This document shows, in pieces, positions 30,227 to 49,056 of a stretch of 64,000 nt of DNA. The position numbers were made by a program, and so were the translations under genes. The notes under the pieces were generated by a model. The model was not told where the DNA came from. It ran no database searches and saw nothing but the letters and a program-made list of their open reading frames with translations. Where the stretch lies: assembly GCA_027487835.1 (NCBI GenBank), contig JAIYCU010000013.1:22856-86855 (forward strand), read 5' to 3'. This stretch comes from Bacteroidota bacterium (lineage in GTDB: Bacteria > Bacteroidota > Bacteroidia > UKL13-3). Every line of letters begins with the position of its first letter. Position 1 is the first letter of the stretch.

Positions 30227-30235
30227 CTAATTTAT

Positions 30236-31355: not shown

Positions 31356-31400
31356 ATAATTGTAGTACTACCCTTCATCTATCAACCAAGCAGACAAAAA

Positions 31401-32204
31401 ATGATAACCATTCAAGAACTACTTTTTAATCGCAAGCTTGACAAAGCTGCAAAAATCAAACTCGTAAGACACAAACAAGTTGGTCGAGACTTATACAATC
31501 TTTATCGGACTAACAGACCCGAGTTTTTAGCTTATCAAAACTCACAAACAAAGGATATTTTTAATGGGGTTGACTACATCGTTTCATTTATTGGCGAAGA
31601 AGGTTTGTTATCTAGGTTTATTGGCGTTTACAAACTAACAGACAGAAAAAAATTAGCTGAGGACCATTTTGAATATCAAATGGAAGAAGTGAAGGAATTT
31701 TTTGACGACTTAAAAGAAAGAGTCATTATCAAATGGGAAAATGCAATTTCTTGGCATCAATGGATAAAGAATGAAATGGAAGTGTTAGAAATTCACCCTG
31801 GTCTTCATTACAAACAATTCACAGACTACTCTGACTTCATTCTCAACTTTCACGAACTCAAAGAAATTGTAAGCAAACAATATGGTGACTGGAAAAAAAT
31901 GCTTTCAGTAACCAAAGGCATTTACCTAATCAGCGATACTAAGACCGGTAAACTTTATGTTGGTTCGGCATACGGAGAGGAAGGCATTTGGGGACGTTGG
32001 ACTAATTACGTTTTAACAAACGGACATGGGGACAATAAAACCTTAAAGGAACTTATCACTGACGACCCAAGCCACGGAAATAATTTTCAATTCTCAATTT
32101 TAATGTTGTTACCTCGAACAATTACGGCAGACGAAGCCATTAAAAAAGAACGCCTTTTTAAAAATAAATTAGGCACAAACTCATTCGGACTTAACAACAA
32201 CTAA
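31401..32204 (+). CDS. GIY-YIG nuclease family protein (cassette 4)
   Basis: GIYLISD...LYVGSAYG...GRW..Y, KE..FK..LG.....LN.N. Confidence 0.9.
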   Translation: MITIQELLFNRKLDKAAKIKLVRHKQVGRDLYNLYRTNRPEFLAYQNSQTKDIFNGVDYIVSFIGEEGLLSRFIGVYKLTDRKKLAEDHFEYQMEEVKEFFDDLKERVIIKWENAISWHQWIKNEMEVLEIHPGLHYKQFTDYSDFILNFHELKEIVSKQYGDWKKMLSVTKGIYLISDTKTGKLYVGSAYGEEGIWGRWTNYVLTNGHGDNKTLKELITDDPSHGNNFQFSILMLLPRTITADEAIKKERLFKNKLGTNSFGLNNN

Positions 32205-32240
32205 AATAACAACTAGGCTGAAAGGACGAAGAAAAACTAA

Positions 32241-32310
32241 TATTAACAAGCGTTTGGGGCAATAAGTGTCAACCATTCCCCTACTTCCCTAAGCACTAAA
32301 AACGTTAATT
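32241..32310 (+). other. short (70-bp) attC-like site
   Basis: TATTAAC...GTTAATT with imperfect inner arms; its GTT is the first triplet of module copy 6. Confidence 0.65.
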
Positions 32311-32415
32311 TATAGCCACCCCTTTTTTAAAATATACCCACTTATGGGTATTTTATGAGTGACATGGATTGGGTATGTTTGTTTTAATAGCCGATGTGAA
32401 GTTTCGGGTATTGAA
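32304..32415 (+). repeat. palindrome/promoter/attI-like module, copy 6
   Basis: ATACCCACTTATGGGTAT (32334-32351), TATGTTTG at 32374, CCGATGTGAAGTTTCGGGTATTGAA; the terminal GTT is missing. Confidence 0.85.
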
Positions 32416-32466
32416 AAACTGTGAATAAGCTTATAGAATCGTTACTAACAGACAGAAATTATAAAA

Positions 32467-33342
32467 ATGAAATTAGTTAAACCAGAAAAATTAAATCTCT
32501 TAACACACAAAGAACTTAATGAAAGTTGGGTGCAACAAGTTATTGCCGACGATCCAACAATTTTAGGACTTGGCGACCTAATTTTAAAAGATAAAGAAAG
32601 AATACACCCAAAAGCAGGTCGCCTTGATATTTTACTTCAAGATGCAGAAAGTAAAAGAAGATATGAAGTTGAAATCCAACTTGGGAAAGTGGACGAAAGC
32701 CATATAATTAGAACTATTGAATATTGGGATATTGAAAGAAAACGTTATCCTCAATATGACCATTGTGCCGTTATTATTGCTGAAGACATTACAAGCAGGT
32801 TTTTAAATGTAATTGGGTTATTTAATGGATATATACCATTAATAGCAATTCAAATGTCTGCTTATCAATTAAATGATAATGAAGTTTCTTTGATATTCAC
32901 AACTGTTCTTGATGAACTCAATTTAGGACTCGTGGAAGAAGATGAAGAAACAAAAGAAGTCACTGACAGAAATTATTGGGAAACTAATAAAGGAACAAAA
33001 CAAACGGTTGCATTAGCTGACCAACTTTTGGAAATCGTAAAAGAATTTAGTCCAAATTTAGAATTGAAATACAATAAGTATTACATAGGACTTGCGAAAA
33101 ATGGACAACCAAATAACTTTGCAATTTTCAGAGCCAAGAAAAGTAGTTTGTTACTAGAAATTAGACTAAAACAATCACCTGAAATCCAAGACAAACTAGA
33201 TGAAGCAAAACTTGACACAATGGATTATGAAAACAAATGGGGACGTTATAGAATTAGAGTAGATAAAAACGATATTACAAAACATAAAGAACTTTTAAAG
33301 AACTTAATGAAACAATCATATGGAATGGTAACTGACGAATAA
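32467..33342 (+). CDS. NucS/EndoMS-like PD-(D/E)XK nuclease + DUF5655-like domain (cassette 5)
   Basis: GRLDILL...YEVEIQLG..DESHIIRTIEYW; C-terminal LKYNKYYIG. Confidence 0.7.
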   Translation: MKLVKPEKLNLLTHKELNESWVQQVIADDPTILGLGDLILKDKERIHPKAGRLDILLQDAESKRRYEVEIQLGKVDESHIIRTIEYWDIERKRYPQYDHCAVIIAEDITSRFLNVIGLFNGYIPLIAIQMSAYQLNDNEVSLIFTTVLDELNLGLVEEDEETKEVTDRNYWETNKGTKQTVALADQLLEIVKEFSPNLELKYNKYYIGLAKNGQPNNFAIFRAKKSSLLLEIRLKQSPEIQDKLDEAKLDTMDYENKWGRYRIRVDKNDITKHKELLKNLMKQSYGMVTDE

Positions 33343-33354
33343 AAAAAGCAGAAA

Positions 33355-33487
33355 GCACAACAACAGTTACACGAGATTTGGGTTTTAGGTAAACTATAAA
33401 TTTGGTTTTGTACTTAAAAGTTAAGGCATAAATCGAAGAGTTAAGGCATGCTTTTTCCAAACCTTGGGAAGCTGCAAACAGTGATGT
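33355..33487 (+). other. degenerate attC-like site
   Basis: GCACAAC...CCAAACCTTGGGAAGCTGCAAACA-GTGATGT; same GCTGCAAA right arm as the 30095-30226 site, with GTT mutated to GTG. Confidence 0.55.
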
Positions 33488-33521
33488 AATATTTTAGAAA
33501 ACCTGACAGATAACAAGAACT

Positions 33522-35351
33522 ATGGCAATATTAAGTCCGACATTTGAGGCAATAAAAAGGCAAAAGGTACAGCCGACAGAAGGCGAATGGACTTTATTAA
33601 ATTTCTTGTTGGACAACTTGGACGACACTTATCAAATTTGTTATCAACCATATCTTAATGGCGATAATCCCGACTTTGCAATTATGCGAAAAGAAAGCGG
33701 CGTTTTACTCATCGAAGTTAAAGACTGGAATTTAAATCAATATTATGTTGATGAAAAAACAAAATGGAGATTACAAAAGGACAACACGCCAATTAAATCA
33801 CCACTTAATCAAGTTGAGAAATATAAATCAAATTTATTTCATTTACATATAGAAGAACTTTTCAAAAAAAGTGTAAAAAGCAAAAATCATTGGGCAACTG
33901 TAAATTGTGCAGTCTATTTCCACAATGCAACTGAACAAAATTTAACAAGTTTCTTACTTGACGGTTTTGATAAACAAGAAGATGAGTCATATAGAAAATT
34001 TGTTAGTTATTTTGGGTTATTAGGCTATAACTCTCTTACCAAAGACAAACTAAATTCGCTTCTAACAAGATTTTGGCTAAACAAAACATCATATTACTTT
34101 GATGAAACACTTTACAACAGCTTTCAACGGTATTTAAAACCTCCAATTCATCAATTAGAAGAAGGGATAAATATAATTTATTCAAAAGAACAGCAAGAAC
34201 TAATCAGAAGTGAAGTACGACCAAGAAGAAAAATAAAAGGAGTTGCCGGAAGTGGGAAGACTTTGGTATTAGCAAAACGAGCAGTAAATGCTTACAAAAG
34301 AACTGATGATCAAATTTTAGTTTTAACCTATAATCTATCACTTAAAAATTATATTCACGACAGAATTAGTGATGTTAGAGAAGAATTTAATTGGACTAAT
34401 TTTTACATAACAAATTACCATCAATTTTTCAAAACACAAGCAAACAATTACAATTTAGAAATTCAAAATCTTGGTGCCTGGCAGGATACTTCTTTCTTTG
34501 AAAGTGTAAAAAAAAACATAAAAAAATATGATGTAGTTCTAATAGATGAAATTCAAGATTATATGCAATCTTGGATAGACATTATTACAACTTACTTCAC
34601 TCATTCAGAAACAGAGTTTGTCGTTTTTGGAGACGAAAAACAAAATATATACGAAAGAGAACTTGACGAAAACAATGAAATTATTGTTCGACAAATTCCT
34701 GCACGTTGGAACAAATCTTTAAATGTGTCGCATCGTTTTGCGAGTAATATTGGAAACATTGCAATAAAATTTCAAAAAAAAATATTTGGACTTAAATATG
34801 GTGCAGACGAATTAAAGGTAATGTCTCAATTTGATTTTGAAAAACGGATAATCGAATACCACTTTTTCCATGCATTTACAGCAGATCTTTTATTTGAAAA
34901 GGTTTACAATGTTTTGGAACGTAATCAAATTCACTCTTCTGATGCAGGAATCTTATGCTCAAAAGTTGAAATTTTAAGAGCTATTGACTTTTCTATACGA
35001 ACAATAAAACACGAAAACACTTCAACTACATTTGAAAGTCAAGAAGAATATTTAGAATACAAAGACAATAATTCCAATATTGAAGAAATTAGAAGATTAA
35101 GAAAGAATCATTTTTATATGAAAACTGGAACTGTCAAACTTTCAACTATTCATAGTTTTAAAGGTTGGGAAATAGACACTCTATTTTTATTCATTGAAAA
35201 AGAAGAAAACGAAAAGGAATTTGTAAATGCCGAACTAATTTATACTGGACTTACAAGAGCAAGAAAAAATTTAATTATTTTCAATTTAGATAACAGAAAG
35301 TATGACGAATTTTTTAAAGCTGAAATTGAAATAAAATTTGAACACAAATAA
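33522..35351 (+). CDS. NERD nuclease + SF1 (UvrD-like) helicase (cassette 6)
   Basis: PDF...LIEVKDW nuclease motif, Walker A GVAGSGKT, DEIQD, FGDEKQNIY, TIHSFKGWE, YTGLTRA. Confidence 0.9.
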   Translation: MAILSPTFEAIKRQKVQPTEGEWTLLNFLLDNLDDTYQICYQPYLNGDNPDFAIMRKESGVLLIEVKDWNLNQYYVDEKTKWRLQKDNTPIKSPLNQVEKYKSNLFHLHIEELFKKSVKSKNHWATVNCAVYFHNATEQNLTSFLLDGFDKQEDESYRKFVSYFGLLGYNSLTKDKLNSLLTRFWLNKTSYYFDETLYNSFQRYLKPPIHQLEEGINIIYSKEQQELIRSEVRPRRKIKGVAGSGKTLVLAKRAVNAYKRTDDQILVLTYNLSLKNYIHDRISDVREEFNWTNFYITNYHQFFKTQANNYNLEIQNLGAWQDTSFFESVKKNIKKYDVVLIDEIQDYMQSWIDIITTYFTHSETEFVVFGDEKQNIYERELDENNEIIVRQIPARWNKSLNVSHRFASNIGNIAIKFQKKIFGLKYGADELKVMSQFDFEKRIIEYHFFHAFTADLLFEKVYNVLERNQIHSSDAGILCSKVEILRAIDFSIRTIKHENTSTTFESQEEYLEYKDNNSNIEEIRRLRKNHFYMKTGTVKLSTIHSFKGWEIDTLFLFIEKEENEKEFVNAELIYTGLTRARKNLIIFNLDNRKYDEFFKAEIEIKFEHK

Positions 35352-35360
35352 AAAAAACAA

Positions 35361-35515
35361 CACATAAGACGAGTTTTACATAAGAGGCGATTCAGCGCTC
35401 ATAATCAGTTTTGACTTTAATTAAATATTTAGTTTTCAAAAAAAAACATTAGTACTAAAATGAAAGTAAGCGCTACAAAATCCGCTTCTTCACCAAGCGC
35501 CAAAAATCGATAATT
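35361..35515 (+). other. degenerate attC-like site
   Basis: CACATAA(G)...AAGAGGCG / CGCTTCTT...CAAGCGCCAAAAATC-GATAATT; runs directly into module copy 7. Confidence 0.45.
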
Positions 35516-35630
35516 TATAGCTAACCCCTATTTTTAAATATACCCACTTATGGGTATTTTTTGAGTGAGGGGGATTGGGTATGTTTGTTTTAATAACCGA
35601 GGTGAAGTTTTGATTATTGAATGGTTATGC
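35509..35630 (+). repeat. palindrome/promoter/attI-like module, copy 7
   Basis: ATACCCACTTATGGGTAT (35540-35557), TATGTTTG at 35580, ATTGAATG|GTTATGC with GTT at 35624. Confidence 0.85.
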
Positions 35631-35687
35631 TTAATTCATTAGTAATAGTTAAATTTCTAGAAAACAAATATAAAACTTGAAATAATT

Positions 35688-36653
35688 ATGGGAGCTGTTG
35701 TATTTCCAATTCAAAAATTTTACGACCAGACTTCTGAGTTAGTTGGTATAAAGTCAGGACTTCTTTTAAGTGACACAGATATAAACAGCATCTTAAAAGA
35801 GAAATTTGAGGACACCTTTCTTGACAATCAAAGCAAAGATCAAATTATCAGATTAAGATCTGAGGCGATTGAATTAATGATAAAATATATAAGGATTAGG
35901 ATAGGTAATATCCCATCTGCTCCCAAAGTGAACTACTACAAAATATTAGCAAAGTATCTTAAAGACATAGAAGATTTTAAAATTCACGGTTTATATCTTG
36001 GTTATGCCATAAATCAAACCAATTTAGGTCTAGAAATGACGTATGAATCTCTAAAGAAGGAAATTTCCAAAAACAAAAAGTTAAATGATGAATTAATCGA
36101 TGCTCTAACGTTTACTATTATGGAACAAATTGACGATGGAATTACCTTTCCTCCTTCATATAATCTTGACGGTGCAGCTCCTCTACAATCTTTATTTGAA
36201 CTCGAAGTATTCCCTATGTCTGACAATACATTCATTGATCAAAAGTTCATTGACTACTTAGCAGTTAATGGAAATGAAATTGAAGAAATCCATTGGAGAA
36301 ACTTTGAGCGATTTGTCGCTGAATATTTCCAGAGACAAGGACTGACGGTGGTTTTAGGCTCTGGACAAAATGATGGAGGTGTTGATATTCGAGTATTCAA
36401 CGAAAAGAATACAAAAGATCCCCTGATATTAATTCAATGCAAAAGATATAAGTCTGAAAATAAAGTATCAATTGAGACCGTTAAAGCTTTCCACTCGGAT
36501 GTTGTCTATGAAAATGCGAAACTAGGATTAATAGCAACGACAAGTAGAGTTGCGACTGGAGGGAAGAAAGTTGTTAATGCCCGGAACTACAACATTTCCG
36601 TAGCAGAGAAGGAAAATGTCAAAAAGTGGGCCACAACAATGTGGAATAAATGA
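35688..36653 (+). CDS. Mrr-family restriction endonuclease (cassette 7)
   Basis: WRNFERFVAEYF...DGGVDI...IQCKRY...IATTS (Mrr_cat). Confidence 0.9.
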   Translation: MGAVVFPIQKFYDQTSELVGIKSGLLLSDTDINSILKEKFEDTFLDNQSKDQIIRLRSEAIELMIKYIRIRIGNIPSAPKVNYYKILAKYLKDIEDFKIHGLYLGYAINQTNLGLEMTYESLKKEISKNKKLNDELIDALTFTIMEQIDDGITFPPSYNLDGAAPLQSLFELEVFPMSDNTFIDQKFIDYLAVNGNEIEEIHWRNFERFVAEYFQRQGLTVVLGSGQNDGGVDIRVFNEKNTKDPLILIQCKRYKSENKVSIETVKAFHSDVVYENAKLGLIATTSRVATGGKKVVNARNYNISVAEKENVKKWATTMWNK

Positions 36654-37007
36654 GCAAAAAACTAACGGTTTTATGCTCTTGAAGACTTGAATGCTAATTT
36701 GAAATCACACCCACTTTATAGAAAAGTGGAACGACCTCCTAACAGCCAAAGTTTCGCTGTGCCTGCAAGCCAAGCCATGAATTGAAAATCATCGAATACC
36801 TATAAAACAATTAACCTAATGTGATAAACTCTAGTTGAAAGCAGATTGCTTTGGATAGTACTAACATAGACCAACATGATTGTACTAACTATTTTCTCCA
36901 ATTCCTGAATTTCATTTAACTAATTTCTTTAAATTCGAAACGATCTAAAAGACATTTTGCTCCTTGCATTTGAAAGGTTTGAGATAGGACGCAATTTTTA
37001 TTAAATT

Positions 37008-37436
37008 ATGGAAATAGGTGATTATGATTTATATGAAGGTGGGAAAATAACCTTTAAAGCGACTGTAGGTAAAGTTATCTATAGGATAAAAAGGGCTCCT
37101 AAAAATATTATGCAGTCAGGTGATGACTCATTCTTAACCAATTTTTGGGATGAGGTTTGTGTTCAAGTGCAAGATGAATATTGGACTTGCTGGAGCTTAT
37201 ATGAGTATTATATTGAACAAACAATTTTGAGTATTATAGATGCTTTAACTTACAACAAAAGGAGAGCGTTGTCTTATTTTTTGTATTGGGAAAAAGAATT
37301 TGAAGAGCCTCATGAAGATTTAGGATATTACCCAGACTTGTGCCAAGAGATGTTACTAAACGAGATTTTGGAATTGGCATTAAATTATAGAAACTTAAAG
37401 ATTCAAAAATATTTGGATAGTCGTTATTTAGATTAA
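37008..37436 (+). CDS. hypothetical protein
   Basis: 142-aa ORF with an AT-rich leader; no recognisable motif. Confidence 0.55.
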   Translation: MEIGDYDLYEGGKITFKATVGKVIYRIKRAPKNIMQSGDDSFLTNFWDEVCVQVQDEYWTCWSLYEYYIEQTILSIIDALTYNKRRALSYFLYWEKEFEEPHEDLGYYPDLCQEMLLNEILELALNYRNLKIQKYLDSRYLD

Positions 37437-37453
37437 TGCAAGTTTGAAATCTA

Positions 37454-37912
37454 ATGGAATTTGAAAATTTATATAATAAAAGTCTAGTTAAAGAGCTTAA
37501 AAAACTTCTCAATATGATAGACGATACATTTTCACACCTAAAAGAAAATGGTCATGATGTTTCCTTGTTTGAAATGGGAGAAAGGAAAAGTAAACAAAAC
37601 AAGATGGATTGGAGTGATTATGGCTTCTATCTTTACAGTAGGGATGAGAAAACAATTATTTTTATTGGAATGTGGCTAAGCTATTGGGCGCAAACTGGTA
37701 ACCCACTTACCTTATTCTTATACTCCTATGTTGACAATAAAGATAGGAAACTAAAGCATGAAAGGTTAAACTCATACATTACCAAACGTAAGGAAATTTT
37801 CAATGACCTTGATGAATTTCAAGAATATCTAAATATTAGCATTAATAAGCCCTTATTCAATAATTTTAATGATTATATTAGTCTTATTCAAAGGGTTTAT
37901 GGTTTTACCTAG
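37454..37912 (+). CDS. hypothetical protein
   Basis: 152-aa ORF, co-directional, 17 bp after the previous gene. Confidence 0.55.
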   Translation: MEFENLYNKSLVKELKKLLNMIDDTFSHLKENGHDVSLFEMGERKSKQNKMDWSDYGFYLYSRDEKTIIFIGMWLSYWAQTGNPLTLFLYSYVDNKDRKLKHERLNSYITKRKEIFNDLDEFQEYLNISINKPLFNNFNDYISLIQRVYGFT

Positions 37913-37967: not shown

Positions 37968-38978
37968 ATGGCGACAAACAAACATGCAACCATCCGTTAC
38001 CTTGCTTTAGATAGATGCTTTAGCAATTTCGGCAAAAGGTTTTTTATTGAAAATTTGATAGAGGCATGTAACCAAGCCATATACGACTATTCTGGCATCA
38101 ATGACGGAATCAAGCGTAGACAAATTTTTGATGATATCGCCTATATGGAGAGTAGCAGTGGTTGGGAAATTCCATTAGAAAGACATAAAGATGGAAGAAG
38201 GGTATATTATAGATATTCTGATAAATCATTTTCCATCAAAAGCCAAGGAATTAATCAAGCTGAGGCGGAACAATTAAAAGAGACCTTGAATATTTTGACT
38301 CGATTCAAAGGAATGCCTCAATTTGAATGGATAGAAGAAATGCGAGTAAGGCTTGAAGAAACATTTAAGTTAAAAGGGAATGCCCAATCGACAGTTGGGT
38401 TTGAACAGAACCCTTATCTAAAAGGATTAAGCCACTTCACTGGGTTGTTTAACGCGATTCAAAATGAAGTAGCTCTTCAAATACGTTATCAGGGATTTAA
38501 GCAAAGTAAGCCTTCACATGTTATTTTACATCCTTGGTATTTAAAACAATATAATAATCGATGGTTTCTATTCGGACTAAATGATGAATTTAAAACTATC
38601 ACAAACTTTGCACTTGACAGAATTATTGAGTTTGAGGATTCAAAAGTGAAGTTTTATAAAAATGAGGAGCTAAACTTCGATGAATATTTTGAGGATGTAG
38701 TGGGTGTAACTGTTAAGAAAGATGCTCCAATAGAAACGCTTTTGATAAAAGTAAATAAAGAAATTTGGCCATATATTGAGAGTAAACCATTACATGGTTC
38801 TCAAAAAGTAAAAAATAAAACAGAAGCAGAAGTTATTATTGAACTCAGTATGCAGGTTAATCATGAACTGCTAGCATTGTTGTTTTCCTATATGGATCAA
38901 CTTGAATTAGTGGAGCCCGACTCGGTTAGACAATCGATTAAACATGTTTCTAATTCCATATATAAAAAGTATTTTTAA
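37968..38978 (+). CDS. WYL-domain transcriptional regulator (wHTH-WYL-WCX)
   Basis: N-terminal RY..LDRC...RRQIFDDI..M wHTH; HPWYLKQYNNRWFLFG, ALDRI, KPLHGSQ, VEPDSVR. Confidence 0.92.
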   Translation: MATNKHATIRYLALDRCFSNFGKRFFIENLIEACNQAIYDYSGINDGIKRRQIFDDIAYMESSSGWEIPLERHKDGRRVYYRYSDKSFSIKSQGINQAEAEQLKETLNILTRFKGMPQFEWIEEMRVRLEETFKLKGNAQSTVGFEQNPYLKGLSHFTGLFNAIQNEVALQIRYQGFKQSKPSHVILHPWYLKQYNNRWFLFGLNDEFKTITNFALDRIIEFEDSKVKFYKNEELNFDEYFEDVVGVTVKKDAPIETLLIKVNKEIWPYIESKPLHGSQKVKNKTEAEVIIELSMQVNHELLALLFSYMDQLELVEPDSVRQSIKHVSNSIYKKYF

Positions 38979-38980
38979 CT

Positions 38981-39016
38981 ATGCACTTGCACTGCACAAT
39001 AAGATATAACCTTTGT
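38981..39016 (+). promoter_or_regulatory. candidate WYL operator plus near-consensus -7 element
   Basis: TGCA-N7-TGCA (ATGCACTTGCACTGCACA) followed by ATAACCTTTG, in the 58-bp gap before the MTase-HK gene. Confidence 0.4.
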
Positions 39017-39036
39017 TGAACATTAAATGAGATGCT

Positions 39037-41673
39037 ATGAGAGAGGTTAATTATCACAATCAGATAGATTTTTTAGTATTTAATATTTACAGCTATTTAG
39101 ATGTTTTTAGAAGTTCTGAAGAGATTAGTTCTACTGAAGATCTCTTATCTGTAGGTATGTTATTATTATCACTGCAAAAAGATGGGTTACTAAAACAAGA
39201 TGACCTTAAAGACAGAGAAACTTTTGACGCCTTTTGCCAAAAAATAATGGATAATAGTAAGTTGGATAGTATTCCACTTACTTACCCAAAAATTTTCTCC
39301 GTTTTAGAGGATAAAATTTCGAAACTTGAAAATAGCCTCCTGCAGCAGATTTCATTTAAGCTGTTTGGGTTAAATGCAATTGATAAAGAAATCTTAACGA
39401 AAAATTTTGCCATTGTCTTTGATAAAATATTATATCAATACTTAAAAGCATATAAAAGGCCATTTGGAGAATTTATTCAACCCATTGAATTAACCAGATT
39501 GATGCTTGCTTTGCCAAATCTGAAAAAGGATGCAACCATATTTAATCCCTTTGCCGGATTGGCTTCTTTTGGCATTTCTTTGGATTCACAGCAGGTATAT
39601 TTTGGACAGGAGATTCATCCAAAAACTTGGGTTATTGGCGCCCTAAGATTATTGGCTTATGGAAAAAAGGACAGTGTAAATTATGTTTGTGATGATTCAT
39701 TGGTGAATTGGCCAAAGGAGGCTGAAAAGTTCGACTTCATTGTATCTAATCCTCCTTTTAGAATGAGGGTTGGAAATCTATCAGGAATACCTAACTCCCA
39801 GTTTAAAACCGTTGAGCAGTTTATTATATCAAAAGGCCTGCAATCACTAAATCAATCCGGAAAACTGGTAACGCTACTGCCAACAAGCTTCTTGAATAGC
39901 CAAATGTATCAAGAGCATAATTTGCGAAAATCTTTAGTAGATCAGGATTTAATTGATACTATTATTTCATTACCCGGAGGTATTCTTCCTCATACAGGAA
40001 TTCCAATTATTGTGCTTTTCCTCAATAAAAAGAAAGAAAGGCCCGGCTTGGTACGCTTTATTAAAGCCGATTCCTTTGTTGAATCTGATGGTTCGAAAAG
40101 AAAAGTTTTAAATGACCGAAAGTTATCTGCCCTGATCCTTCAACATGAAAAGGAGATTTTTGTTGATTCAGACCCTACCATTGTTTCTGAGCCAGCTGCT
40201 GAATATCATTCTTCTTATAAAAAACTAAAGAATGAGGATATTGAACGAACTGTAAAATTAAAGGAATTAAAGGAATCAAATTACGATATTCATGTTCCTA
40301 AGTATTTCCAGAAACCAATTGATTTTTTGGAAAATGAAAAGCTGGTAAAGCTTGGTGATATTCTCAAGTTAATTGAAGTTCAAAAGGATAGCATAGATAC
40401 AAGAGGTAAATTTGTTCGGATACGAGATTTAAAGAACGATAAAGTTGATTACATACTTGAATCTTCCAGACTTGAGGAATCAGAACTTAAAAGACCAGTC
40501 GCATTTCAGGTAACCGAATCTTGTTTGTTGCTAACTCTTCGCTGGCAAACATTAAAACCTACATTTTTTAATTTCAAAGGTGAAAAAATCTATAGAAATC
40601 AAGATGTTGTATCTTTCAAGGTAGATGAATCTCGAGTTGAAATCGCTTATTTAATCAATGCACTGCATGCTGATTATGTAATTGAACAACTTAATTCTAT
40701 TCGTATAAGTGGATCTGTAATTCCATTTATACGAAAGGATGATTTGATGAAGGTTCTTATAAAATTACCTTCCATGAATGAACAAAGGGCAAAAATTGCC
40801 GGAATTAATGAAGTATACACTGATATAAGATTAAGTGAAAGCAAGGTAAAGGAAGAGAACCAGATAGTTTTTAATGACGTTACTGAACAAAATAACTTCT
40901 TACGTCATTCCATTGCAGGTAACCTGGCCAATCTGAGAGGTTCTTTTAAAAAAGTGAAACAAATTTTTGAAAGTCAGATAAAACTAACTCATCCTGAAAT
41001 ACTTGATATGAAAGAGAACAATAGATCTCAACTGACACTCGCAAATTTATTGCACTCAATGGAGCGAGATATTGAAAAAGTCTCTTTAGACACGCAAAGA
41101 AACACCTTAGGTGGTTCATATATACAAAGCGCTATTATGGAATCCATTGAAATTATTCCATTCATTTCAGAATTGGTAAATGAAATCATTAGCAACCCAA
41201 ATCGTAATTTTGAAATTACCTTTACGCCTGCCAAAAATGACTTTGTAGATGCAGAAGGCAATGAGGTTAGAGTATACATTAATGGTAACAAAAATCTAAT
41301 AAAGGATATGTTTAATAATATTATCGAGAATGCCATTGAACATGCTTTTGAATCTGACTTTAGAGAAAATAACTTAATTAGTATAGATTGCTTTGGAAAC
41401 AATATTTATGAACCAAGGTTTAGTATCAGTATTTCTAATAATGGTAAAAGACTTCCTGAAGATTTTACACAAGAAATGTTCGTTCGAAAAGGTAGTAAAG
41501 CTGGACCTAAAGCTGGTAATGGCTACGGTGGTTGGTTAATTAATCAGATTATTCATAAACATAATGGCACCCTTGAGATTGATGATGAACAAGGTCCACA
41601 AGGAATCGGAGGAATTTGGTCAACCAGTTTTGAAATCAATTTGCCAGTATTAAACTATGAAAAGTATGAATGA
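39037..41673 (+). CDS. fusion: N6-adenine DNA methyltransferase (HsdM-like) + HsdS/TRD-like domain + histidine kinase
   Basis: GEFIQP, motif I FNPFAG, motif IV NPPF, IISLP; TRD-like YLINAL...IPFIRKDDL..V.IKLPSMNEQ; H-box LRHS, N-box FNNIIENAIEHAF, ISNNG, GNGYGG. Confidence 0.85.
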   Translation: MREVNYHNQIDFLVFNIYSYLDVFRSSEEISSTEDLLSVGMLLLSLQKDGLLKQDDLKDRETFDAFCQKIMDNSKLDSIPLTYPKIFSVLEDKISKLENSLLQQISFKLFGLNAIDKEILTKNFAIVFDKILYQYLKAYKRPFGEFIQPIELTRLMLALPNLKKDATIFNPFAGLASFGISLDSQQVYFGQEIHPKTWVIGALRLLAYGKKDSVNYVCDDSLVNWPKEAEKFDFIVSNPPFRMRVGNLSGIPNSQFKTVEQFIISKGLQSLNQSGKLVTLLPTSFLNSQMYQEHNLRKSLVDQDLIDTIISLPGGILPHTGIPIIVLFLNKKKERPGLVRFIKADSFVESDGSKRKVLNDRKLSALILQHEKEIFVDSDPTIVSEPAAEYHSSYKKLKNEDIERTVKLKELKESNYDIHVPKYFQKPIDFLENEKLVKLGDILKLIEVQKDSIDTRGKFVRIRDLKNDKVDYILESSRLEESELKRPVAFQVTESCLLLTLRWQTLKPTFFNFKGEKIYRNQDVVSFKVDESRVEIAYLINALHADYVIEQLNSIRISGSVIPFIRKDDLMKVLIKLPSMNEQRAKIAGINEVYTDIRLSESKVKEENQIVFNDVTEQNNFLRHSIAGNLANLRGSFKKVKQIFESQIKLTHPEILDMKENNRSQLTLANLLHSMERDIEKVSLDTQRNTLGGSYIQSAIMESIEIIPFISELVNEIISNPNRNFEITFTPAKNDFVDAEGNEVRVYINGNKNLIKDMFNNIIENAIEHAFESDFRENNLISIDCFGNNIYEPRFSISISNNGKRLPEDFTQEMFVRKGSKAGPKAGNGYGGWLINQIIHKHNGTLEIDDEQGPQGIGGIWSTSFEINLPVLNYEKYE

Positions 41674-42823
41674 ATATAAGGTACTTTGGTTTGACGATGA
41701 GCATGAATCTTTTGAATCACTCAAGGATGATGCGAATCAGAAAGGAATAAAACTTATAGGTTATACCAATGCAGAAGAGGGTATTGCCGAACTGGAATCA
41801 AACCTGATTTCTTTTGATGCCGTTATAGTGGATGGTAAGTTCTATAAAAATGCCAGCGCAACAGGTGATGCTGTGAATGATGGTGCATTATTTAACGTGG
41901 CAAGATTTCTGGACAAAAGAGAAGGTATCAAGAAAATCCCCTGGTTTATTTTTTCTGGTCAGCCAGATTTCCTAAACTCATCAAACCCTATTGCGGCTGA
42001 ATACAAAGGAAACAAAGTTTATAATAAGAACTTTGATGCAGATATTGAACAGTTATGGATGGATATTAAAAAGGAAGCCGACCAACAGCCAGATACGCAA
42101 ATTCGCCATAAGTACCATCGAGTTTTTGAAGTCTGCACAGAAAAGTATATTGGTGAACTTGCCTACCACGATTTACTCTCAATGTTAAAAAAAGAAAATT
42201 CCGAAAAAGCCTTTACAGATCCTAATCTTTATTTCAATCCATTAAGAAAAATAATGGATGATTTGTTTATGGCAAGTAATAAATACGGATTAATGCCCGA
42301 TGTGTTTGTAAAACCATCAGTTGCATTAAATGAATCAAGCAAGTTTCTTTCAGGTATTGTTGAGAAAGGATATAAATTAGATACTCCTGTTTTTCCAAAA
42401 GTTGTTTCCGATCATGTTCGCTGCATATTGGCAGTTTGTCAACCTGCTTCACACCGCTCCGAATTAGATAGCTTTATATCTCAAGTAAATACTCCTTACC
42501 TTTTAATGAGCGTAACCTACCAATTATTGGATGTATTGCTTTGGTTTAAAGACTTTATAGATGCCAATACCGATATAGTATTCAATAAGACTAAATATAT
42601 GCTTGTAGACACAAGTAGTTCTTCATGTGCAATTACAGGAACTATCGAACAAGATAGAAGTAAAAATTATCACTGTGGCGAAATAATAATTAATTACACT
42701 CAATTTAATAAAAACGGATTTAAAATAGGTGACACCATAAGAATTTTAAAAGTTGCTAATAATACCAACGAAAAAACAATGCATCAATATCCCAAAAATG
42801 CAGTGCAAACAGAGAAAATTTAA
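41657..42823 (+). CDS. receiver (REC) domain protein with uncharacterised C-terminal output
   Basis: KVLWFDDE, FDAVIVD (phosphoacceptor), FIFSG, YNK; overlaps the kinase stop by 17 bp (alternative ATG at 41666). Confidence 0.8.
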   Translation: MKSMNEYKVLWFDDEHESFESLKDDANQKGIKLIGYTNAEEGIAELESNLISFDAVIVDGKFYKNASATGDAVNDGALFNVARFLDKREGIKKIPWFIFSGQPDFLNSSNPIAAEYKGNKVYNKNFDADIEQLWMDIKKEADQQPDTQIRHKYHRVFEVCTEKYIGELAYHDLLSMLKKENSEKAFTDPNLYFNPLRKIMDDLFMASNKYGLMPDVFVKPSVALNESSKFLSGIVEKGYKLDTPVFPKVVSDHVRCILAVCQPASHRSELDSFISQVNTPYLLMSVTYQLLDVLLWFKDFIDANTDIVFNKTKYMLVDTSSSSCAITGTIEQDRSKNYHCGEIIINYTQFNKNGFKIGDTIRILKVANNTNEKTMHQYPKNAVQTEKI

Positions 42824-42835
42824 TTAGATAATATT

Positions 42836-45202
42836 ATGAACCAAGCAGTACACAATAAATCAATATCCTTCATTTGGTCAATAGCAGATGATTGTTTGCG
42901 TGATGTTTATGTGAGAGGAAAATACCGTGATGTAATTTTACCTATGGTGGTGCTTCGCAGGCTGGATGCTTTGCTTGAACCAACCAAGGCAGCCGTATTG
43001 GAAGAATTGGTTTTTCAAAAAGAAGAAGCCAAGTTTACCGAATGGGACGAAAACGGACTAAGACAAGCCAGTGGTTATGTGTTTTACAATACCAGCGAAT
43101 GGACCTTGCAACGCTTACACGATACTGCTACTAATAACCAACAAATTCTTCAAGCCAATTTTGAAGATTACTTGAATGGCTTTAGCGGAAACGTAAAAGA
43201 GATTATTGAAAAATTCAAACTTAAAAGCCAGGTAAGACACATGGCATCGAAAGATGTTTTGTTGAATGTCCTAGAGAAATTCACTTCTCCTTATATCAAC
43301 CTCACGCCTTTTGAAAAGAACGATCCTGACGGCCGTAAATTACCGCCTTTAACGAACTTGGGAATGGGTTATGTGTTTGAGGAATTGATTCGCAAATTTA
43401 ACGAAGACAATAACGAAGAAGCTGGGGAACACTTTACGCCTCGTGAGGTAATTGACCTCATGACCCACATTATTTTTGAACCAGTAAAAGACAAACTTCC
43501 TCCTGTAATGACCATTTACGACCCTGCATGTGGTAGTGGTGGTATGCTCACCGAATCTCAGAATTTTGTAAAGGATGAAGAGGGTGAAATAAAAGCAAAA
43601 GGCGATGTTTATTTGTATGGTAAAGAAATCAATGATGAAACGTATGCCATTTGCAAATCGGATATGATGATAAAGGGTAATAACCCAGAAAATATCAAGG
43701 TTGGCTCCACACTTTCAACAAATGAATTTTCTGGACATACTTTCGATTTTATGCTCTCCAATCCACCTTATGGTAAGTCATGGGCAAGTGAGCAAAAGTT
43801 TATCAAAGATGGCAAAGATATTATTGACCCTCGTTTTCAAATTAAACTGAAAAACTATTGGGGTATTGAGGAAGATGCGGACGCAACGCCTCGTTCTTCC
43901 GATGGCCAATTGCTGTTCCTGATGGAAATGGCGAACAAAATGAAACCATTAACTCAAAGTCCTTTGGGTTCTAGAATAGCTTCGGTGCATAATGGTAGTA
44001 GTTTATTTACTGGTGATGCTGGGGGTGGCGAAAGCAATATTCGCAGGTATATTATTGAAAACGATTGGCTGGAAGCCATTGTGCAAATGCCCAATAACTT
44101 GTTTTACAATACCGGTATTACCACCTATATCTGGATATTGAGCAACAACAAAGCAGCAAACCGCAAAGGCAAAGTGCAATTAATAGATGCAGGTTTATTG
44201 TTCCGTAAACTGCGTAAGAACTTAGGCAATAAAAACTGTGAATTTGCACCTGAACATATTCGTGAAATTGTTTCGGTATATGAAAAGATGCAATCTGTTG
44301 ACCGAGTAATTAATAGCGAAACTAAAGAAGAACAAGGAATAGCTTCAAAACTATTTGACAATACCGATTTTGGTTATTACAAAGTTACCATTGAACGACC
44401 TAAGCGATTAAAAGCACAATTTACTGCTGAACGAATTGCTGAATTACGTTTTGATAAAACCCTACGTGAACCAATGGCTTGGGCTTACGAAACCTTTGGC
44501 GAAAAAGTATATTCTGAAATAGCCAAACATGAAAAAGAAATTACTGAATGGTGTGAAAAAAACGAGTTAAACCTCAATGCCAAGCTAAGCAAAGCATTGG
44601 TAAGCGAAGCCCTTTGGACGAAACAATTGGAATTACTCAAAACCGCAACTGAATTAATGCAGGCCATTGGCAACGATGAATACAACGATTTTAATTTGTT
44701 CAGGGAAAAAGTAGATGAGGTATTGAAAGTTACGAAAACCAAACTCGCTGCTTCTGAAAAAAATGCCATTTTAAATGCAGTGAGCTGGTACGATGCCTCT
44801 GCTGAAAAGGTTATTAAAGGCACAACTAAATTAACCGGCGACAAACTGCAGCAACTGCTGGAGCACCTGTCCTGCAAAGAAACTGATTTAGCCAACTATG
44901 GCTATTTTGCTACCGATAAAAAGGGCGAATACATTGAATACGAAACCGAAAGCGATTTGCGTGATACCGAAAATGTGCCACTCAAAGAAAATATTTACGC
45001 TTACTTTTTGCGAGAAGTAAAACCCCATGTAGCCGAAGCCTGGATAAACTTAGATGCCACCAAAATTGGTTACGAAATAAGTTTCAATAAATACTTTTAC
45101 CGCCACAAACCTTTGCGTGCCATTGAAGAAGTAACCAACGATATTTTGAAACTAGAAGAATTGAGTGATGGTTTAATTCGTGAAATTTTAAATCTAGCTT
45201 AA
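42836..45202 (+). CDS. hsdM: type I RM methyltransferase subunit
   Basis: FIWSIADD, GEHFTPREV, YDPACGSGGML, NPPYG, FYNTGI, KIGYEISFNKYFY. Confidence 0.95.
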   Translation: MNQAVHNKSISFIWSIADDCLRDVYVRGKYRDVILPMVVLRRLDALLEPTKAAVLEELVFQKEEAKFTEWDENGLRQASGYVFYNTSEWTLQRLHDTATNNQQILQANFEDYLNGFSGNVKEIIEKFKLKSQVRHMASKDVLLNVLEKFTSPYINLTPFEKNDPDGRKLPPLTNLGMGYVFEELIRKFNEDNNEEAGEHFTPREVIDLMTHIIFEPVKDKLPPVMTIYDPACGSGGMLTESQNFVKDEEGEIKAKGDVYLYGKEINDETYAICKSDMMIKGNNPENIKVGSTLSTNEFSGHTFDFMLSNPPYGKSWASEQKFIKDGKDIIDPRFQIKLKNYWGIEEDADATPRSSDGQLLFLMEMANKMKPLTQSPLGSRIASVHNGSSLFTGDAGGGESNIRRYIIENDWLEAIVQMPNNLFYNTGITTYIWILSNNKAANRKGKVQLIDAGLLFRKLRKNLGNKNCEFAPEHIREIVSVYEKMQSVDRVINSETKEEQGIASKLFDNTDFGYYKVTIERPKRLKAQFTAERIAELRFDKTLREPMAWAYETFGEKVYSEIAKHEKEITEWCEKNELNLNAKLSKALVSEALWTKQLELLKTATELMQAIGNDEYNDFNLFREKVDEVLKVTKTKLAASEKNAILNAVSWYDASAEKVIKGTTKLTGDKLQQLLEHLSCKETDLANYGYFATDKKGEYIEYETESDLRDTENVPLKENIYAYFLREVKPHVAEAWINLDATKIGYEISFNKYFYRHKPLRAIEEVTNDILKLEELSDGLIREILNLA

Positions 45203-46506
45203 TGGGAACGGTAATAGATAATACTACTATTAAAAAATATCCAGCTTATAAAGATTCAGGAGTGGAATGGATTGAAGATGTTCCTTCTCATTGGGAAGTA
45301 AAAAAGTTTAAACGAGTTTTCTATGAAATAAAGAAACGTAGTAATCCTGAATTGAATTGCGGTTCGATAAGTTTTGGAAAAGTAGTTTACAAGGATGATG
45401 AAAAAATCCCTGAATCAACAAAGAGATCATATCAAGTTGTACAGAAAGGAGACTTTTTAGTAAACCCACTGAATCTAAATTATGACTTAATAAGCTTGAG
45501 AATTGCTTTATCAGATATTGATGTTGTTGTAAGTTCAGGTTATATTGTATTGAGCAATAGTGTTAAACTTGATAAAACATTTTATAAGTATTTTCTACAT
45601 CGATTTGATGTTGCATTTATGAAATTATTGGGTTCAGGTGTTAGGCAAACACTTAATTGGAATGACATTGCTAATTGTGATTTAATTTTTCCACCCCTTT
45701 CTGAACAAACCGCCATTGCAGCCTTTCTCGACCGCAAAACAGCCTTGATAGATCAAGCCATTGACATCAAACAAAAACAAATAGAACTACTCAAAGAACG
45801 TAGGCAAATACTCATTCACAAAGCCGTTACCCGTGGACTAAACCCCAATGTAAAACTAAAAGATAGCGGAGTGGAATGGATTGGGGAGATACCGGAGGGT
45901 TGGGGTATTTGTAAAATTAAACTTTTAATAGAGATTAAAGATGGCACACATGATACACCAGCATATGTCAATCCGGGTTTAGACACTTATCCTCTTGCTA
46001 CAACAAAACATGTCACAACCGGAGTTTTAAATTTAGAAGATGCTTCACACATAAGCTCAAATGATTATTTTGAAATAATTAAACGGTCAAATGTAGAAAA
46101 CGGTGATATTGTCATGCCAATGATAGGCACGATTGGCTCTCCTATTATTATAGTTACGGCAGATAAATTTGCTATTAAAAACTTAGCATTATTTAAAACG
46201 GCTAATTCAGAAAAGCTAAACAATCGTTTTTTGTATTACTTATTGCAATGTGATTTAATAAAAATACAATTTGAGTTAGTCTCAAATGGCGGAGTACTTG
46301 GCTTTATGTCATTAGGACAGCTAAGAAATCTAATTATTCCTAAACTTTCCTTAGATGAACAAATCGAAATTGTTAAAGAAATAGATAGTGCTGGCATAAA
46401 AATCACCACTGCAATTTCCCTCAAAGAGCAAGAAATAGAAAAGCTAAAAGAATACAAAGCCACCTTAATTAATAGTGCGGTAACGGGTAAAATAAAAGTT
46501 TGTTAG
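45202..46506 (+). CDS. hsdS: type I RM specificity subunit
   Basis: Two KDSGVEWI conserved regions, two TRDs, PPLSEQ, C-terminal AVTGKI. Confidence 0.95.
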   Translation: MGTVIDNTTIKKYPAYKDSGVEWIEDVPSHWEVKKFKRVFYEIKKRSNPELNCGSISFGKVVYKDDEKIPESTKRSYQVVQKGDFLVNPLNLNYDLISLRIALSDIDVVVSSGYIVLSNSVKLDKTFYKYFLHRFDVAFMKLLGSGVRQTLNWNDIANCDLIFPPLSEQTAIAAFLDRKTALIDQAIDIKQKQIELLKERRQILIHKAVTRGLNPNVKLKDSGVEWIGEIPEGWGICKIKLLIEIKDGTHDTPAYVNPGLDTYPLATTKHVTTGVLNLEDASHISSNDYFEIIKRSNVENGDIVMPMIGTIGSPIIIVTADKFAIKNLALFKTANSEKLNNRFLYYLLQCDLIKIQFELVSNGGVLGFMSLGQLRNLIIPKLSLDEQIEIVKEIDSAGIKITTAISLKEQEIEKLKEYKATLINSAVTGKIKVC

Positions 46507-46508
46507 GT

Positions 46509-46997
46509 ATGAAAGAAAACATGTTAGATAAACTAAAAACAGAAATTAAGAGTTTACAAAATTCTGTTTTAAAGCTTAAGGAGCATTTCCCTGCAAAGAA
46601 AAGTGGTTTTACCCTTGATGGTAGATTGGTTGGAGATATTGGAGAAATAGTAGCTCAAGAACTATTTCAAATTAAACTATATGAAAAGGTAGTTAAGTAT
46701 TATGATGCAGAAACAACCTATGAACCAAAGCTAAAGATTCAAATTAAAGCTACTTTTAAAGAAAGTTTGACTTATAACCATGAGCCTGATTATTATATTG
46801 GAATTAAACTTTTTGAAGATGGAAATTTTAAAGTAATTTATAATGGCCCAGGAAAATACATTTACCAAAATTATCAACACAGAAAGGGAATTGGAGAGCA
46901 GCTTTTGTTATTCCCAATAAAAAAATTGGAGGAAATTTCTTCCCGGATTAATGATAATGAGCGCATTTTGATAAAAGATGATTTGAATAATGAGTAA
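46509..46997 (+). CDS. DUF6998-like PD-(D/E)XK nuclease
   Basis: FTLDGRLVGDIGE...YDA...QIKAT; ATG 46509 preferred to TTG 46500. Confidence 0.65.
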   Translation: MKENMLDKLKTEIKSLQNSVLKLKEHFPAKKSGFTLDGRLVGDIGEIVAQELFQIKLYEKVVKYYDAETTYEPKLKIQIKATFKESLTYNHEPDYYIGIKLFEDGNFKVIYNGPGKYIYQNYQHRKGIGEQLLLFPIKKLEEISSRINDNERILIKDDLNNE

Positions 46998-47604
46998 TAA
47001 TTTTAATTGTATGACATCAATAGAAACAATAATCAAAGCAATAAATGCAACAACAAAAACTGTAAATCAGCATGAGGCGTATTCAAATAAGCCAGGACTT
47101 TATGCTTTTGTATTGGCCCCAAATTCTAATCTTAAAAGTTTTGGAAGCGGCAATCAAATTATTTATGTGGGTAAAGCAGAAGATAGTTTAAGGCAACGTG
47201 ACCTAAATACACACTTTAAGGATGGAAGAACTGGGCAATCAACTTTGAGGCGCTCAATTGGTGCTGTATTAAAAAATGAACTTAAAGCAGTCGCATTTAG
47301 CAGAAATGGAACACTAAATAGCCCCAATATTGACAATTATAAATTTGATTCCAAGGCTGAGAAACAACTTTCTATTTGGATGAAAGATAACTTACTAATT
47401 GGGTATTGGGAATATGATACTTCAAAAGAAAATAAGTCTCTGCGTGAAATTGAGGAACAGTTAATCATACATCTAAAACCAACCTTGGACCTAGATAAAA
47501 GAACTAAGGGATTCAATGTTTGTGCTGAGTTATTAACTCAATTGCGTCAAAAGTGCAAAGATGAAGCAAAGAAAAATGTTTTGGGTTATGTTGGGTATTT
47601 TTAA
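46990..47604 (+). CDS. GIY-YIG nuclease family protein
   Basis: PGLYAF...IYVGKA..LRQR...H...STLRRSIG, IEEQLI...KP. Confidence 0.75.
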   Translation: MSNNFNCMTSIETIIKAINATTKTVNQHEAYSNKPGLYAFVLAPNSNLKSFGSGNQIIYVGKAEDSLRQRDLNTHFKDGRTGQSTLRRSIGAVLKNELKAVAFSRNGTLNSPNIDNYKFDSKAEKQLSIWMKDNLLIGYWEYDTSKENKSLREIEEQLIIHLKPTLDLDKRTKGFNVCAELLTQLRQKCKDEAKKNVLGYVGYF

Positions 47605-47663
47605 GCATTAGAATTGTGGCTAATAAATAAAGTTGAACTAATTATATTTGAAAAAAAAAGATA

Positions 47664-49055: not shown

Positions 49056-49056
49056 A

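Follow-up and report, generated by a model that had tools for sequence, protein, structure and literature searches.

Gene content of the locus

We analyzed a 64,000-nucleotide stretch of DNA from a member of the Bacteroidota (contig JAIYCU010000013.1, positions 22,856 to 86,855 of the forward strand; hereafter the window), in which three adjacent genes stand at the head of a type I restriction-modification (RM) operon. They code for a WYL-domain regulator, for a protein that fuses a DNA methyltransferase, a target recognition domain (TRD) and a histidine kinase, and for a response regulator. Together with one cis element, these genes form a cassette that is found in Bacteroidota as the leading part of type I RM operons. 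Its features in the window are the following, where SAM stands for S-adenosylmethionine and DHp for dimerization and histidine phosphotransfer:

37968-38978, + strand: WYL/WCX-domain regulator, 336 aa (Pfam WYL, WCX), presumed transcription factor of the cassette
38980-38998, + strand: palindrome TATGCA-N7-TGCACA (TATGCACTTGCACTGCACA), directly after the WYL stop codon
39012-39015, + strand: TTTG promoter box, 15 nt past the palindrome
39037-41673, + strand: methyltransferase-TRD-histidine kinase fusion, 878 aa (Pfam, PADLOC, NCBIfam, structure model)
39061-40143, + strand: N-terminal helical domain (residues 9-138) and SAM-binding Rossmann domain (residues 150-369) of the fusion (model, Pfam, PDB matches); motifs read from the sequence of the methyltransferase part are FNPFAG 169-174 (NPFAG 170-174), Glu192, Asp220 and NPPF 238-241
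40234-40773, + strand: single HsdS-type TRD of the fusion, residues 400-579 (PADLOC, HsdS PDB chains)
40774-41136, + strand: DHp-like hairpin of the fusion, helix 580-651 with His624 (codon 40906-40908) and return helix 668-690 (model)
41137-41661, + strand: HATPase_c domain of the fusion, residues 701-875, with Asn765, NNG 801-803 and GNGYGG 827-832 (Pfam HATPase_c, conservation)
41657-42823, + strand: response regulator, 388 aa (structure model and residue conservation)
within 41657-42823, + strand: receiver, residues 5-145, with Asp59 (codon 41831-41833); helical domain, residues 146-312; small beta-barrel, residues 313-388 (model)

A first-pass annotation had described a single 878-aa open reading frame (ORF) joining a methyltransferase, a TRD and a kinase core, which is borne out by Pfam, PADLOC and the structure model, and had placed it together with its partner gene between a WYL regulator and hsdM. 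The ORF coordinates agree with this arrangement: the gap is 58 bp from the WYL gene to the fusion gene and 12 bp from the regulator gene to hsdM, and the fusion and regulator genes overlap by 17 nt. The motifs that it had picked out (FNPFAG, NPPF, LRHS, N-box, NNG, GNGYGG) are all present and conserved. The profile searches and structure prediction that it had proposed for both proteins confirmed the domains of the fusion and returned a receiver fold for residues 1-145 of the regulator.

Distribution of the cassette

A genome scan yielded 117 stretches encoding a relative, and the locus counts given here refer to the best 80 of them. An intact fusion ORF is present in 77 of these 80 loci, the other three being short contigs, and a regulator relative comes next after the fusion in 76/77, the exception (L078) being a stretch that ends 533 bp past the gene. 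In most loci the two genes are -17 to +6 nt apart, and a WYL relative lies immediately upstream of the fusion in 57/70. Since the architecture recurs in 77/80 independent loci, neither chance nor misassembly can account for the fusion, which dispels the initial worry that it might be an artefact or a singleton.

At the protein level, we found at least 72 full-length clusters of fusion relatives, 805-907 aa in length and 28-97% identical. The hosts are almost entirely Bacteroidota, including isolates of Flavobacterium, Sphingobacterium, Chitinophaga, Chryseobacterium and Leeuwenhoekiella, plus metagenome-assembled genomes. Cultured carriers include Sphingobacterium multivorum NCTC11343 (L019) and Leeuwenhoekiella blandensis MED217 (L080), whose fusions have NPPF at motif IV, and Flavobacterium daejeonense DSM 17708 (L025), which has TPPF. 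The regulator family gave 297 matches in a word-based search. A profile of its middle domain matched 1234 representative clusters (50% identity) with a threshold of E <= 1e-3 and 751 when this was tightened to E <= 1e-10; the top 150 matches all have the same ~380-400 aa architecture or are fragments. Near-full-length regulators occur in 10 of 401 sampled genomes of the phylum, the genome of the window counted, a patchy spread of the kind typically seen with mobile defence genes.

A query with the kinase region of the fusion (residues 600-878) returned 13 matches, all 13 methylase-fused, and no kinase-region relatives with other sensors were seen at the sensitivity of this word-based search. 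Separately, one protein of 928 aa (P0077), 24% identical, carries N6_Mtase, Eco57I, Methylase_S and HATPase_c together with PF05066 according to precomputed matches, and may belong to another, more remote family of fusions that resemble methylase-kinases.

The methyltransferase-TRD-kinase fusion

In the fusion, Pfam recognizes N6_Mtase at residues 125-426 (E 7.8e-31) and HATPase_c at residues 752-870 (E 9.4e-10, 39.4 bits for a cut-off of 26.4), as well as Methylase_S at residues 437-603 under its cut-off (E 0.0035). The TRD is backed by PADLOC Specificity_I models (best E 6.6e-10) and by HsdS chains of known structure (5ybb_D, 3okg_A), which match residues 534-593 by sequence (E 1.6e-5), and HsdM chains match residues 131-367 (E 1.3e-13). 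The PADLOC families listed for the fusion (25 of 40) are all methylase or specificity models.

The structure model (predicted local distance difference test, pLDDT, 81.8) has a disordered linker at residues 371-397, a beta-rich TRD at 400-577 and an alpha/beta ATPase domain at 700-875. One unbroken helix, residues 580-651, runs from the conserved helix of the TRD into the hairpin that bears His624. The nearest fold to the first 650 residues is 7eew_A (Foldseek E 4.2e-21, 651 columns), an entry whose title names a single-chain 'intact MTase' from Vibrio vulnificus in complex with the DNA mimic Ocr, followed in the Foldseek list by PacII M1M2S, HsdM structures and CamA.

Residue conservation was scored over 76 fusions and 68 regulators. 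The residues of the SAM pocket (Asn170, Pro171, Phe172, Gly174 and Glu192) are invariant in 76/76 fusions. The canonical motif IV, [ND]PP[FYW], is kept in just 45/76, the other 31 having non-canonical forms (TPPx, SPPx, CPPF, HPPx, APPx, NPPL/I/M, NFPF, NPSY), and the same regular expression finds the canonical motif in 64/64 of the neighbouring HsdM-like genes. Motif IV shows at least 20 state changes when mapped on a FastTree tree for which the motif columns had been removed, five shuffles giving 23-26. Fusions as similar as those of L021 (SPPL) and L005 (NPPF), which are 89.6% identical, or of L025 (TPPF) and L026 (NPPY), which are 81.9% identical, differ at this position.

The TRD is normally the most variable part of type I-type enzymes. 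The fusion has one TRD, joined to the methylase, and not the two variable TRDs of a specificity subunit. Averaged over pairs of fusions, identity reaches 0.44 in the TRD and 0.45 in the methyltransferase core, compared with 0.34 in the DHp-like hairpin and 0.37 in the catalytic and ATP-binding domain. Between the window and its relative L001, identity reaches 97% for the fusion, 96% for the sensor TRD and 94% for HsdM, but only 37% for HsdS. Taken together, the conserved TRD, the relaxed catalytic motif, the invariant SAM pocket and the unbroken helix from the TRD to the histidine fit a re-use of the methylase-plus-specificity (M+S) module as a sensor rather than as an enzyme, and we adopt the reading that methyl transfer is probably not its conserved job. 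The idea that an RM-like M+S module has been repurposed as the sensor of a two-component system was already part of the first-pass annotation, and it is strengthened as far as anatomy and conservation go.

The central positions of the kinase part are also conserved. His624, in the helical hairpin that precedes the ATPase domain, is invariant in 76/76 fusions, N-box Asn765 is likewise present in 76/76, and G2 Gly829 and Gly831 are kept in 75/76. The H-box, HxLxxPLxxI, is one that we take by eye only to resemble HisKA. Partial NCBIfam matches of residues 712-857 are to histidine kinases only (NifL, CztS, EnvZ, PhoR, PmrB), and the best sequence match of the ATPase domain in the PDB is the histidine kinase 9qq6_A (E 0.0033).

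The response regulator

Residues 1-145 of the regulator are modelled as a canonical (beta/alpha)5 CheY-like receiver. Asp13, Asp14, Asp59 and Lys124 are conserved in 68/68 regulators, and position 100 is occupied by Thr (40) or Ser (28), so that the intact DD/D/S/K residues of the receiver protein, described at the outset as overlapping the fusion, are kept across the family. The protein of the window matches nothing in Pfam (no Response_reg at E <= 1), PADLOC or NCBIfam. Given its fold and its active-site residues, we regard it as a divergent member of the receivers despite the missing Response_reg match.

The output half is less familiar. In the helical domain, Arg197 and His266 are present in 68/68 regulators, Ser285 is invariant, and Glu201 and Asp292 are nearly so. 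Weak matches to PF17878 (ssDBP) were obtained for the middle domain in 14/56 members (best E 1e-5), that of P0199 reaching 19.6 bits for a cut-off of 27, and were kept as a lead only. The C-terminal barrel matches S1CSD-TOTE-2 in 28/68 regulators and OB_RNB in 22/68, and the barrel variant of the window itself matches no Pfam model.

The window-type barrel also exists as a stand-alone protein (~85 aa) in 14/401 sampled genomes, 13 of which belong to one genus. Two such genes (L081:1977-2231, - strand, 84 aa; L082:1977-2261, + strand, 94 aa) have unrelated, housekeeping-like neighbours and no Pfam match.

A dimer of the kinase half docked with the receiver at a score of 0.43, against 0.01 for the best of 3 controls, the runs agreeing in at least 66% of contacts and the partner having a pLDDT of at least 75, which lends weak support to the pairing. 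The mark applied was reached by 58/80 solved complexes and by 2/110 mismatched pairs, and at a score of 0.60 or lower only 7 of the 80 solved complexes reached it, together with both mismatches. As kinase and receiver are a textbook pair, the pass may also reflect memory of solved complexes.

The WYL regulator and a putative operator-promoter element

The product of the first gene matches Pfam WYL (E 3.8e-11) and WCX (E 7.1e-6) as well as PADLOC WYL (E 1.8e-23). Its N-terminal 150 residues match no Pfam model, and the protein has no significant sequence match among solved structures.

Directly after its stop codon lies a palindrome with the consensus TRTGCA-N7-TGCAYA which, combined with a TTTG box 15 nt further on, makes up an element that is unique within the window. 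The pattern [TC]GC[AG]-N7-[TC]GC[AG] is present in 49/56 of the gaps between WYL and fusion genes, compared with 142/22,030 background windows of 65 bp, and the strict form TGCA-N7-TGCA in 37/56. TTTG stands exactly 15 nt after the palindrome in 48/49. Counting both strands, the 2.85 Mb of loci contain 99 copies of the composite element, 67 of which lie within 120 bp upstream of a fusion gene, and it is also present in 10/13 loci where the adjoining gene is not WYL. The flanks of 72 sites extend the palindrome, with T at -2 in 50/72, A or G at -1 in 72/72, C or T at +15 in 70/72 and A at +16 in 66/72. An A precedes TTTG by three bases in 59/72, and presumably A and TTTG together correspond to the Bacteroidetes -7 box TAnnTTTG. 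The element likely represents the promoter of the operon with an operator for a WYL dimer.

Seven loci (L038, L045, L058, L062, L065, L066 and L068) have a second copy of the element between the regulator gene and the next one, ~3.6-3.8 kb past the start of the fusion; the next gene is DUF2130 in several of them and codes for a 1003-aa protein without Pfam match in L068. In L064 there are four copies within 10 kb. One strict composite copy elsewhere in the host genome (C1:121189) is located inside an 853-aa ORF with no cassette genes near, and was judged to be there by chance.

In the host genome TGCA-N7-TGCA is not depleted, with 82 copies against 73-89 for out-of-phase spacings. This absence of site avoidance gives no support to a non-methylating sensor of TGCA-N7-TGCA in that genome.

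Linkage to type I restriction and neighbouring genes

Downstream of the cassette, the operon of the window continues as follows:

42836-45202, + strand: hsdM, 788 aa (Pfam HsdM_N, N6_Mtase; PADLOC MTase_I E 3.6e-265)
45202-46506, + strand: hsdS (Pfam Methylase_S; PADLOC Specificity_I E 1.2e-102)
46500-50939, + strand: genes between hsdS and hsdR, with DUF6998, GIY-YIG_2 and NsnA/NsnB/NsnC matches (Pfam, PADLOC)
50942-54040, + strand: hsdR, 1032 aa, final gene of the operon (Pfam HSDR_N, SWI2_SNF2, ResIII, T1R_D3-like)

Linkage to type I systems was scored with hidden Markov models trained on the loci's own hsd genes, in those loci that have at least 7 kb of downstream sequence (n=65). A type I gene is found within 8 kb downstream and on the same strand in 55/65, and in L013 and L019 hsdM-hsdS lie just upstream of the cassette. 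The neighbourhood survey suggested by the first-pass annotation thus upholds a conserved set of WYL, fusion and receiver genes beside hsd genes (57/70, 76/77 and 55/65 for WYL, receiver and hsd, respectively). The gene that follows the regulator is N6-methyltransferase-like in 43/67 loci. Among 20 unlabelled next genes on the + strand, 7 are DUF2130 and 3 HsdR-like, and in L045, L058 and L062 a methylase-like gene comes after the DUF2130 gene.

The HsdM partners belong to different families, of 782-898 aa, ~490-530 aa and ~545 aa types. Moreover, the HsdM proteins of L004 and L041 are 90-91% identical to that of the window, and their fusions only 41% and 34%. HsdM and fusion have thus had different histories, and their association must have been either established anew or maintained through recombination, which speaks for a functional connection.

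Some loci depart from the usual order. L012, L018, L027, L032 and L044 have two tandem HsdM-like genes after the cassette and before hsdS, which recalls PacII M1M2S. In L013, L019, L020, L047, L063 and L068 the first gene after the regulator codes for a protein of 196-1003 aa without Pfam match, and these genes may represent unknown partner systems of the cassette; no type I gene is present in the flanks of L020, L047 and L068. In L001, hsdS (9920-11236) is 37% identical to that of the window (45202-46506) and the neighbouring genes are 90-98% identical, a difference that suggests a recent exchange of RM specificity.

In the window, 5 genes separate hsdS from hsdR, with PADLOC matches to NsnA (E 5.6e-110), NsnB (E 5.3e-111) and NsnC (E 9.6e-25), so that a second defence module is nested within the type I operon. 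Further genes of defence type lie upstream of the cassette, namely a GIY-YIG-like gene (31401-32204) and genes for a DUF5655 protein (32467-33342), a NERD-UvrD helicase (33522-35351) and an Mrr-type nuclease (Mrr_cat, 35688-36653). Two more ORFs in the interval 30000-37912, 142 and 152 aa long, match no Pfam model. G+C content is 0.29-0.36 across ~30-54 kb of the window and ~0.38-0.41 in its surroundings, and a scan of the window found no tRNA gene marking an island border.

Possible functions of the cassette

From domains, fold and conservation, the fusion is well supported as a putative soluble sensor histidine kinase with a complete single-chain type I-like methyltransferase as its input. 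Phosphotransfer from the fusion to the regulator is likely, if shadowed by an atypical G1 box (see below). In the mechanism that we propose, two copies of the fusion would pair as in an M2S1 methylase, held together by the HsdS-type helix that leads on to the helix with His624. DNA or a DNA mimic in the methylase-like clamp, and/or bound SAM, would alter the coiled coil and gate autophosphorylation of His624, from which the phosphoryl group would pass to Asp59 of the regulator. The helical and OB-like output of the latter would then act on single-stranded nucleic acid, probably RNA, and the WYL protein would set the activity of the promoter via the operator.

As to what such a relay might be for, we lean, with reserve, towards a decoy-like sensor of the targets of anti-restriction (the DNA clamp, SAM) or of unmodified DNA, the regulator providing a second-line response. 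A narrower version, in which the decoy would report phage attack on the DNA clamp by Ocr/ArdA mimics and on SAM by SAM-degrading enzymes, and the regulator would act on RNA and stop the cell, is possible, though not probable. If true, it would make the cassette an anti-anti-restriction guard of a new class that can pass from one type I RM family to another.

A number of observations weigh against a methylase-derived sensor that signals by phosphorelay to guard restriction. The first concerns the kinase core, which had originally been described as complete: His624, the N box and the G2 box stand, but the position of the G1-box Asp is Asn801 in 76/76 fusions (motif NNGKP), as placed by alignment to kinase chains, and the fusion has no match to a Pfam model of HisKA type (E <= 0.01). 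In GHKL ATPases the G1-box Asp binds adenine. With an Asn there in all members, the use of ATP by the fusion is not assured, and the question arises which nucleotide the kinase uses. On the side of the regulator, Pfam Response_reg matches 0/68 members at E <= 0.01. For the output domains (residues 146-388) no fold could be assigned, as the Foldseek comparisons with PDB, VIA wide and BFVD were filled by matches of the receiver domain, and a profile of the middle domain found nothing significant among PDB sequences (best tektin-5, E 0.0065). In the ESM Atlas there was a 0.76 hit to a Bacteroidota cluster and no usable named hit for the output domains.

The sensor part raises doubts of its own. 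SPP(Y/F) occurs in N4-cytosine methylases; a Ser or Thr at the first position of motif IV could still support catalysis, part of the variation at this motif may be changed chemistry and not loss, and the copy of the window, with its canonical NPPF, may be an active methylase. The match to the Ocr-bound 7eew_A demonstrates a shared fold only. Finally, 8/65 loci have no type I gene in the available flanks.

Second in our ranking, and possible without being probable, is that the cassette controls the expression of the RM system in the manner of a C protein or an antiterminator, the phosphorelay timing the distal genes and above all hsdR. The phosphorylated regulator would bind the nascent transcript via its S1/CSD-like barrel and alter termination, stability or translation, restriction being delayed or tuned by what the methylase-like sensor reports. 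The operon always starts with the cassette on its 5' side, and the spacing to following genes ranges from -17 to ~+20 nt, so that the cassette would be made before and together with the RM genes. In the window hsdR comes last, ~8 kb after hsdM. The output has an OB/S1/CSD-like domain and no recognizable enzyme, and it is known that cold-shock domain (CSD) proteins serve as RNA chaperones or antiterminators and that ANTAR regulators bind RNA. The second operator-promoter before DUF2130 or hsd genes in the seven loci mentioned above also points to a layered transcriptional control of the island. However, the TRD of the sensor is fixed whereas the neighbouring HsdS specificities differ, so that the sensor could not read the sites of the very RM system that it would time. 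The 8/65 loci without a type I gene nearby are no easier to explain in this way, and the conserved Arg197, His266, Ser285, Glu201 and Asp292 of the output domain resemble an active or ligand site more than a passive RNA-binding surface.

The decoy-like sensor that we prefer must also be weighed against a sensor of the operator itself. A single-TRD M-S homodimer would be expected to recognize two short half-sites across a non-specific spacer, and the fusion might thus read TRTGCA-N7-TGCAYA, which members with NPPF/Y would methylate, setting an epigenetic or occupancy switch for both kinase and operon. The conserved TRD, which is the best-kept part in several comparisons (mean identity 0.44), does accompany a conserved site, and the geometry of the operator, with half-sites of 4-6 bp, a 7-bp spacer and adenines on opposite strands ~8 bp apart, resembles the bipartite targets of type I enzymes. 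We nevertheless consider this improbable, in that an inverted repeat of this kind would ordinarily be assigned to a WYL-type dimer, and that in L019 the site follows the WYL stop codon although the next gene is not the fusion. The lack of depletion of TGCA-N7-TGCA in the host genome also speaks against it, a result that tells nothing if the enzyme methylates the genome in which it resides. As both TRD and site are nearly constant, no co-variation between them can be scored.

Least probable of all, and indeed very unlikely, is that there is no phosphorelay and that the fusion serves as a methyltransferase, auxiliary or orphan, equipped with a GHKL clamp of paraMORC type, beside a receiver fold without Asp phosphorylation: the invariant Asn801, the missing HisKA and Response_reg matches and the published RM-linked GHKL ATPases and two-component-like pairs (as far as the accessible text of PMC8011034 goes) would agree with it, but the fusion has an invariant His in a hairpin of two helices that directly precedes the ATPase domain, this domain matches HATPase_c and histidine kinases only and neither HATPase_c_3 nor HEF_HK, the regulator gives no Response_reg_2 match, the five active-site positions of the receiver are kept in 68/68, and almost every locus shows translational coupling of the two genes.

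We therefore rank a guard or second-line role first, followed by an expression controller, an operator-reading switch and a non-phosphorelay ATPase-methylase. The cassette suggests an undescribed way of sensing or controlling restriction, and offers a route to ask whether a two-component system reads DNA, its methylation state, SAM or DNA mimics. How type I restriction is controlled outside enterobacteria, and how its disarming is noticed, is largely open, and the cassette provides a compact and widespread handle on these questions.

Comparison with known systems

The M+S fold of the fusion is shared with 7eew (Vibrio vulnificus YJ016) and with HsdM/HsdS, which have no kinase module. Unlike these, the fusion has a TRD of invariable type and a relaxed motif, and its HsdS helix extends into the His hairpin and the ATPase. 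As regards function, PrrC with EcoprrI and PARIS, which senses Ocr, are second-line modules in or beside hsd operons that react to anti-restriction, PrrC being an anticodon nuclease and PARIS an ATPase/TOPRIM pair. Neither is a phosphorelay and we found no sequence relation of either to the cassette, for which a guard role is proposed here as a hypothesis.

The WYL gene resembles BrxR and CapW in coding for a WYL and WCX regulator immediately upstream of a defence operon. It differs from them in being co-directional with the operon, with the presumed operator past its own stop codon, and in always accompanying a kinase/regulator pair; in the accessible text of PMC9122601, where BrxR homologues are reported to co-localize with type I restriction in 34/210 cases, the word 'kinase' occurs 0 times.

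The pair itself has a parallel in HEF_HK/Response_reg_2 (PF19191/PF19192), kinase-like and receiver-like neighbours that are enriched beside RM genes. According to the accessible part of their description, these have HATPase_c_3 of paraMORC type and occur mainly with type II RM systems and C5 methylases (PMC8011034). The cassette differs in having the methyltransferase inside the kinase protein, and neither PF19191 nor PF19192 matches the fusion (E <= 0.01) or the regulator (E <= 1).

The first-pass annotation knew of no characterized system with this architecture, and our literature searches concur: no published methyltransferase-TRD-kinase fusion with this regulator was found, figures and supplementary tables not being covered. 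One figure legend (PMC13092281) includes 'HATPase' and 'REC' among the domains of predicted systems, from which a match to this architecture cannot be told.

Among the closest known systems is Detocs, described in the accessible text of 10.1101/2023.01.24.525353 as a two-component system that acts in phage defence by His-to-Asp transfer. As in the cassette, a sensor kinase is paired with a response regulator in which a different domain takes the place of the DNA-binding output. Detocs is made up of the TPR kinase DtcA, the buffer receiver DtcB and DtcC, a receiver with a PNP ATP-nucleosidase effector. By contrast, the cassette has a methyltransferase-TRD sensor and a helical and OB-like output, and is tied to an RM operon behind a WYL regulator. 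There is no stand-alone receiver gene in 39037-42836 that would correspond to DtcB, no Detocs model is among the PADLOC families listed for the fusion (25 of 40), and the regulator has no PADLOC match. Two-component signalling and WYL-regulated, RM-linked defence are thus both known, and it is the input domain that appears unprecedented: the fusion would be the first histidine kinase with a whole DNA methyltransferase-specificity module as its input.

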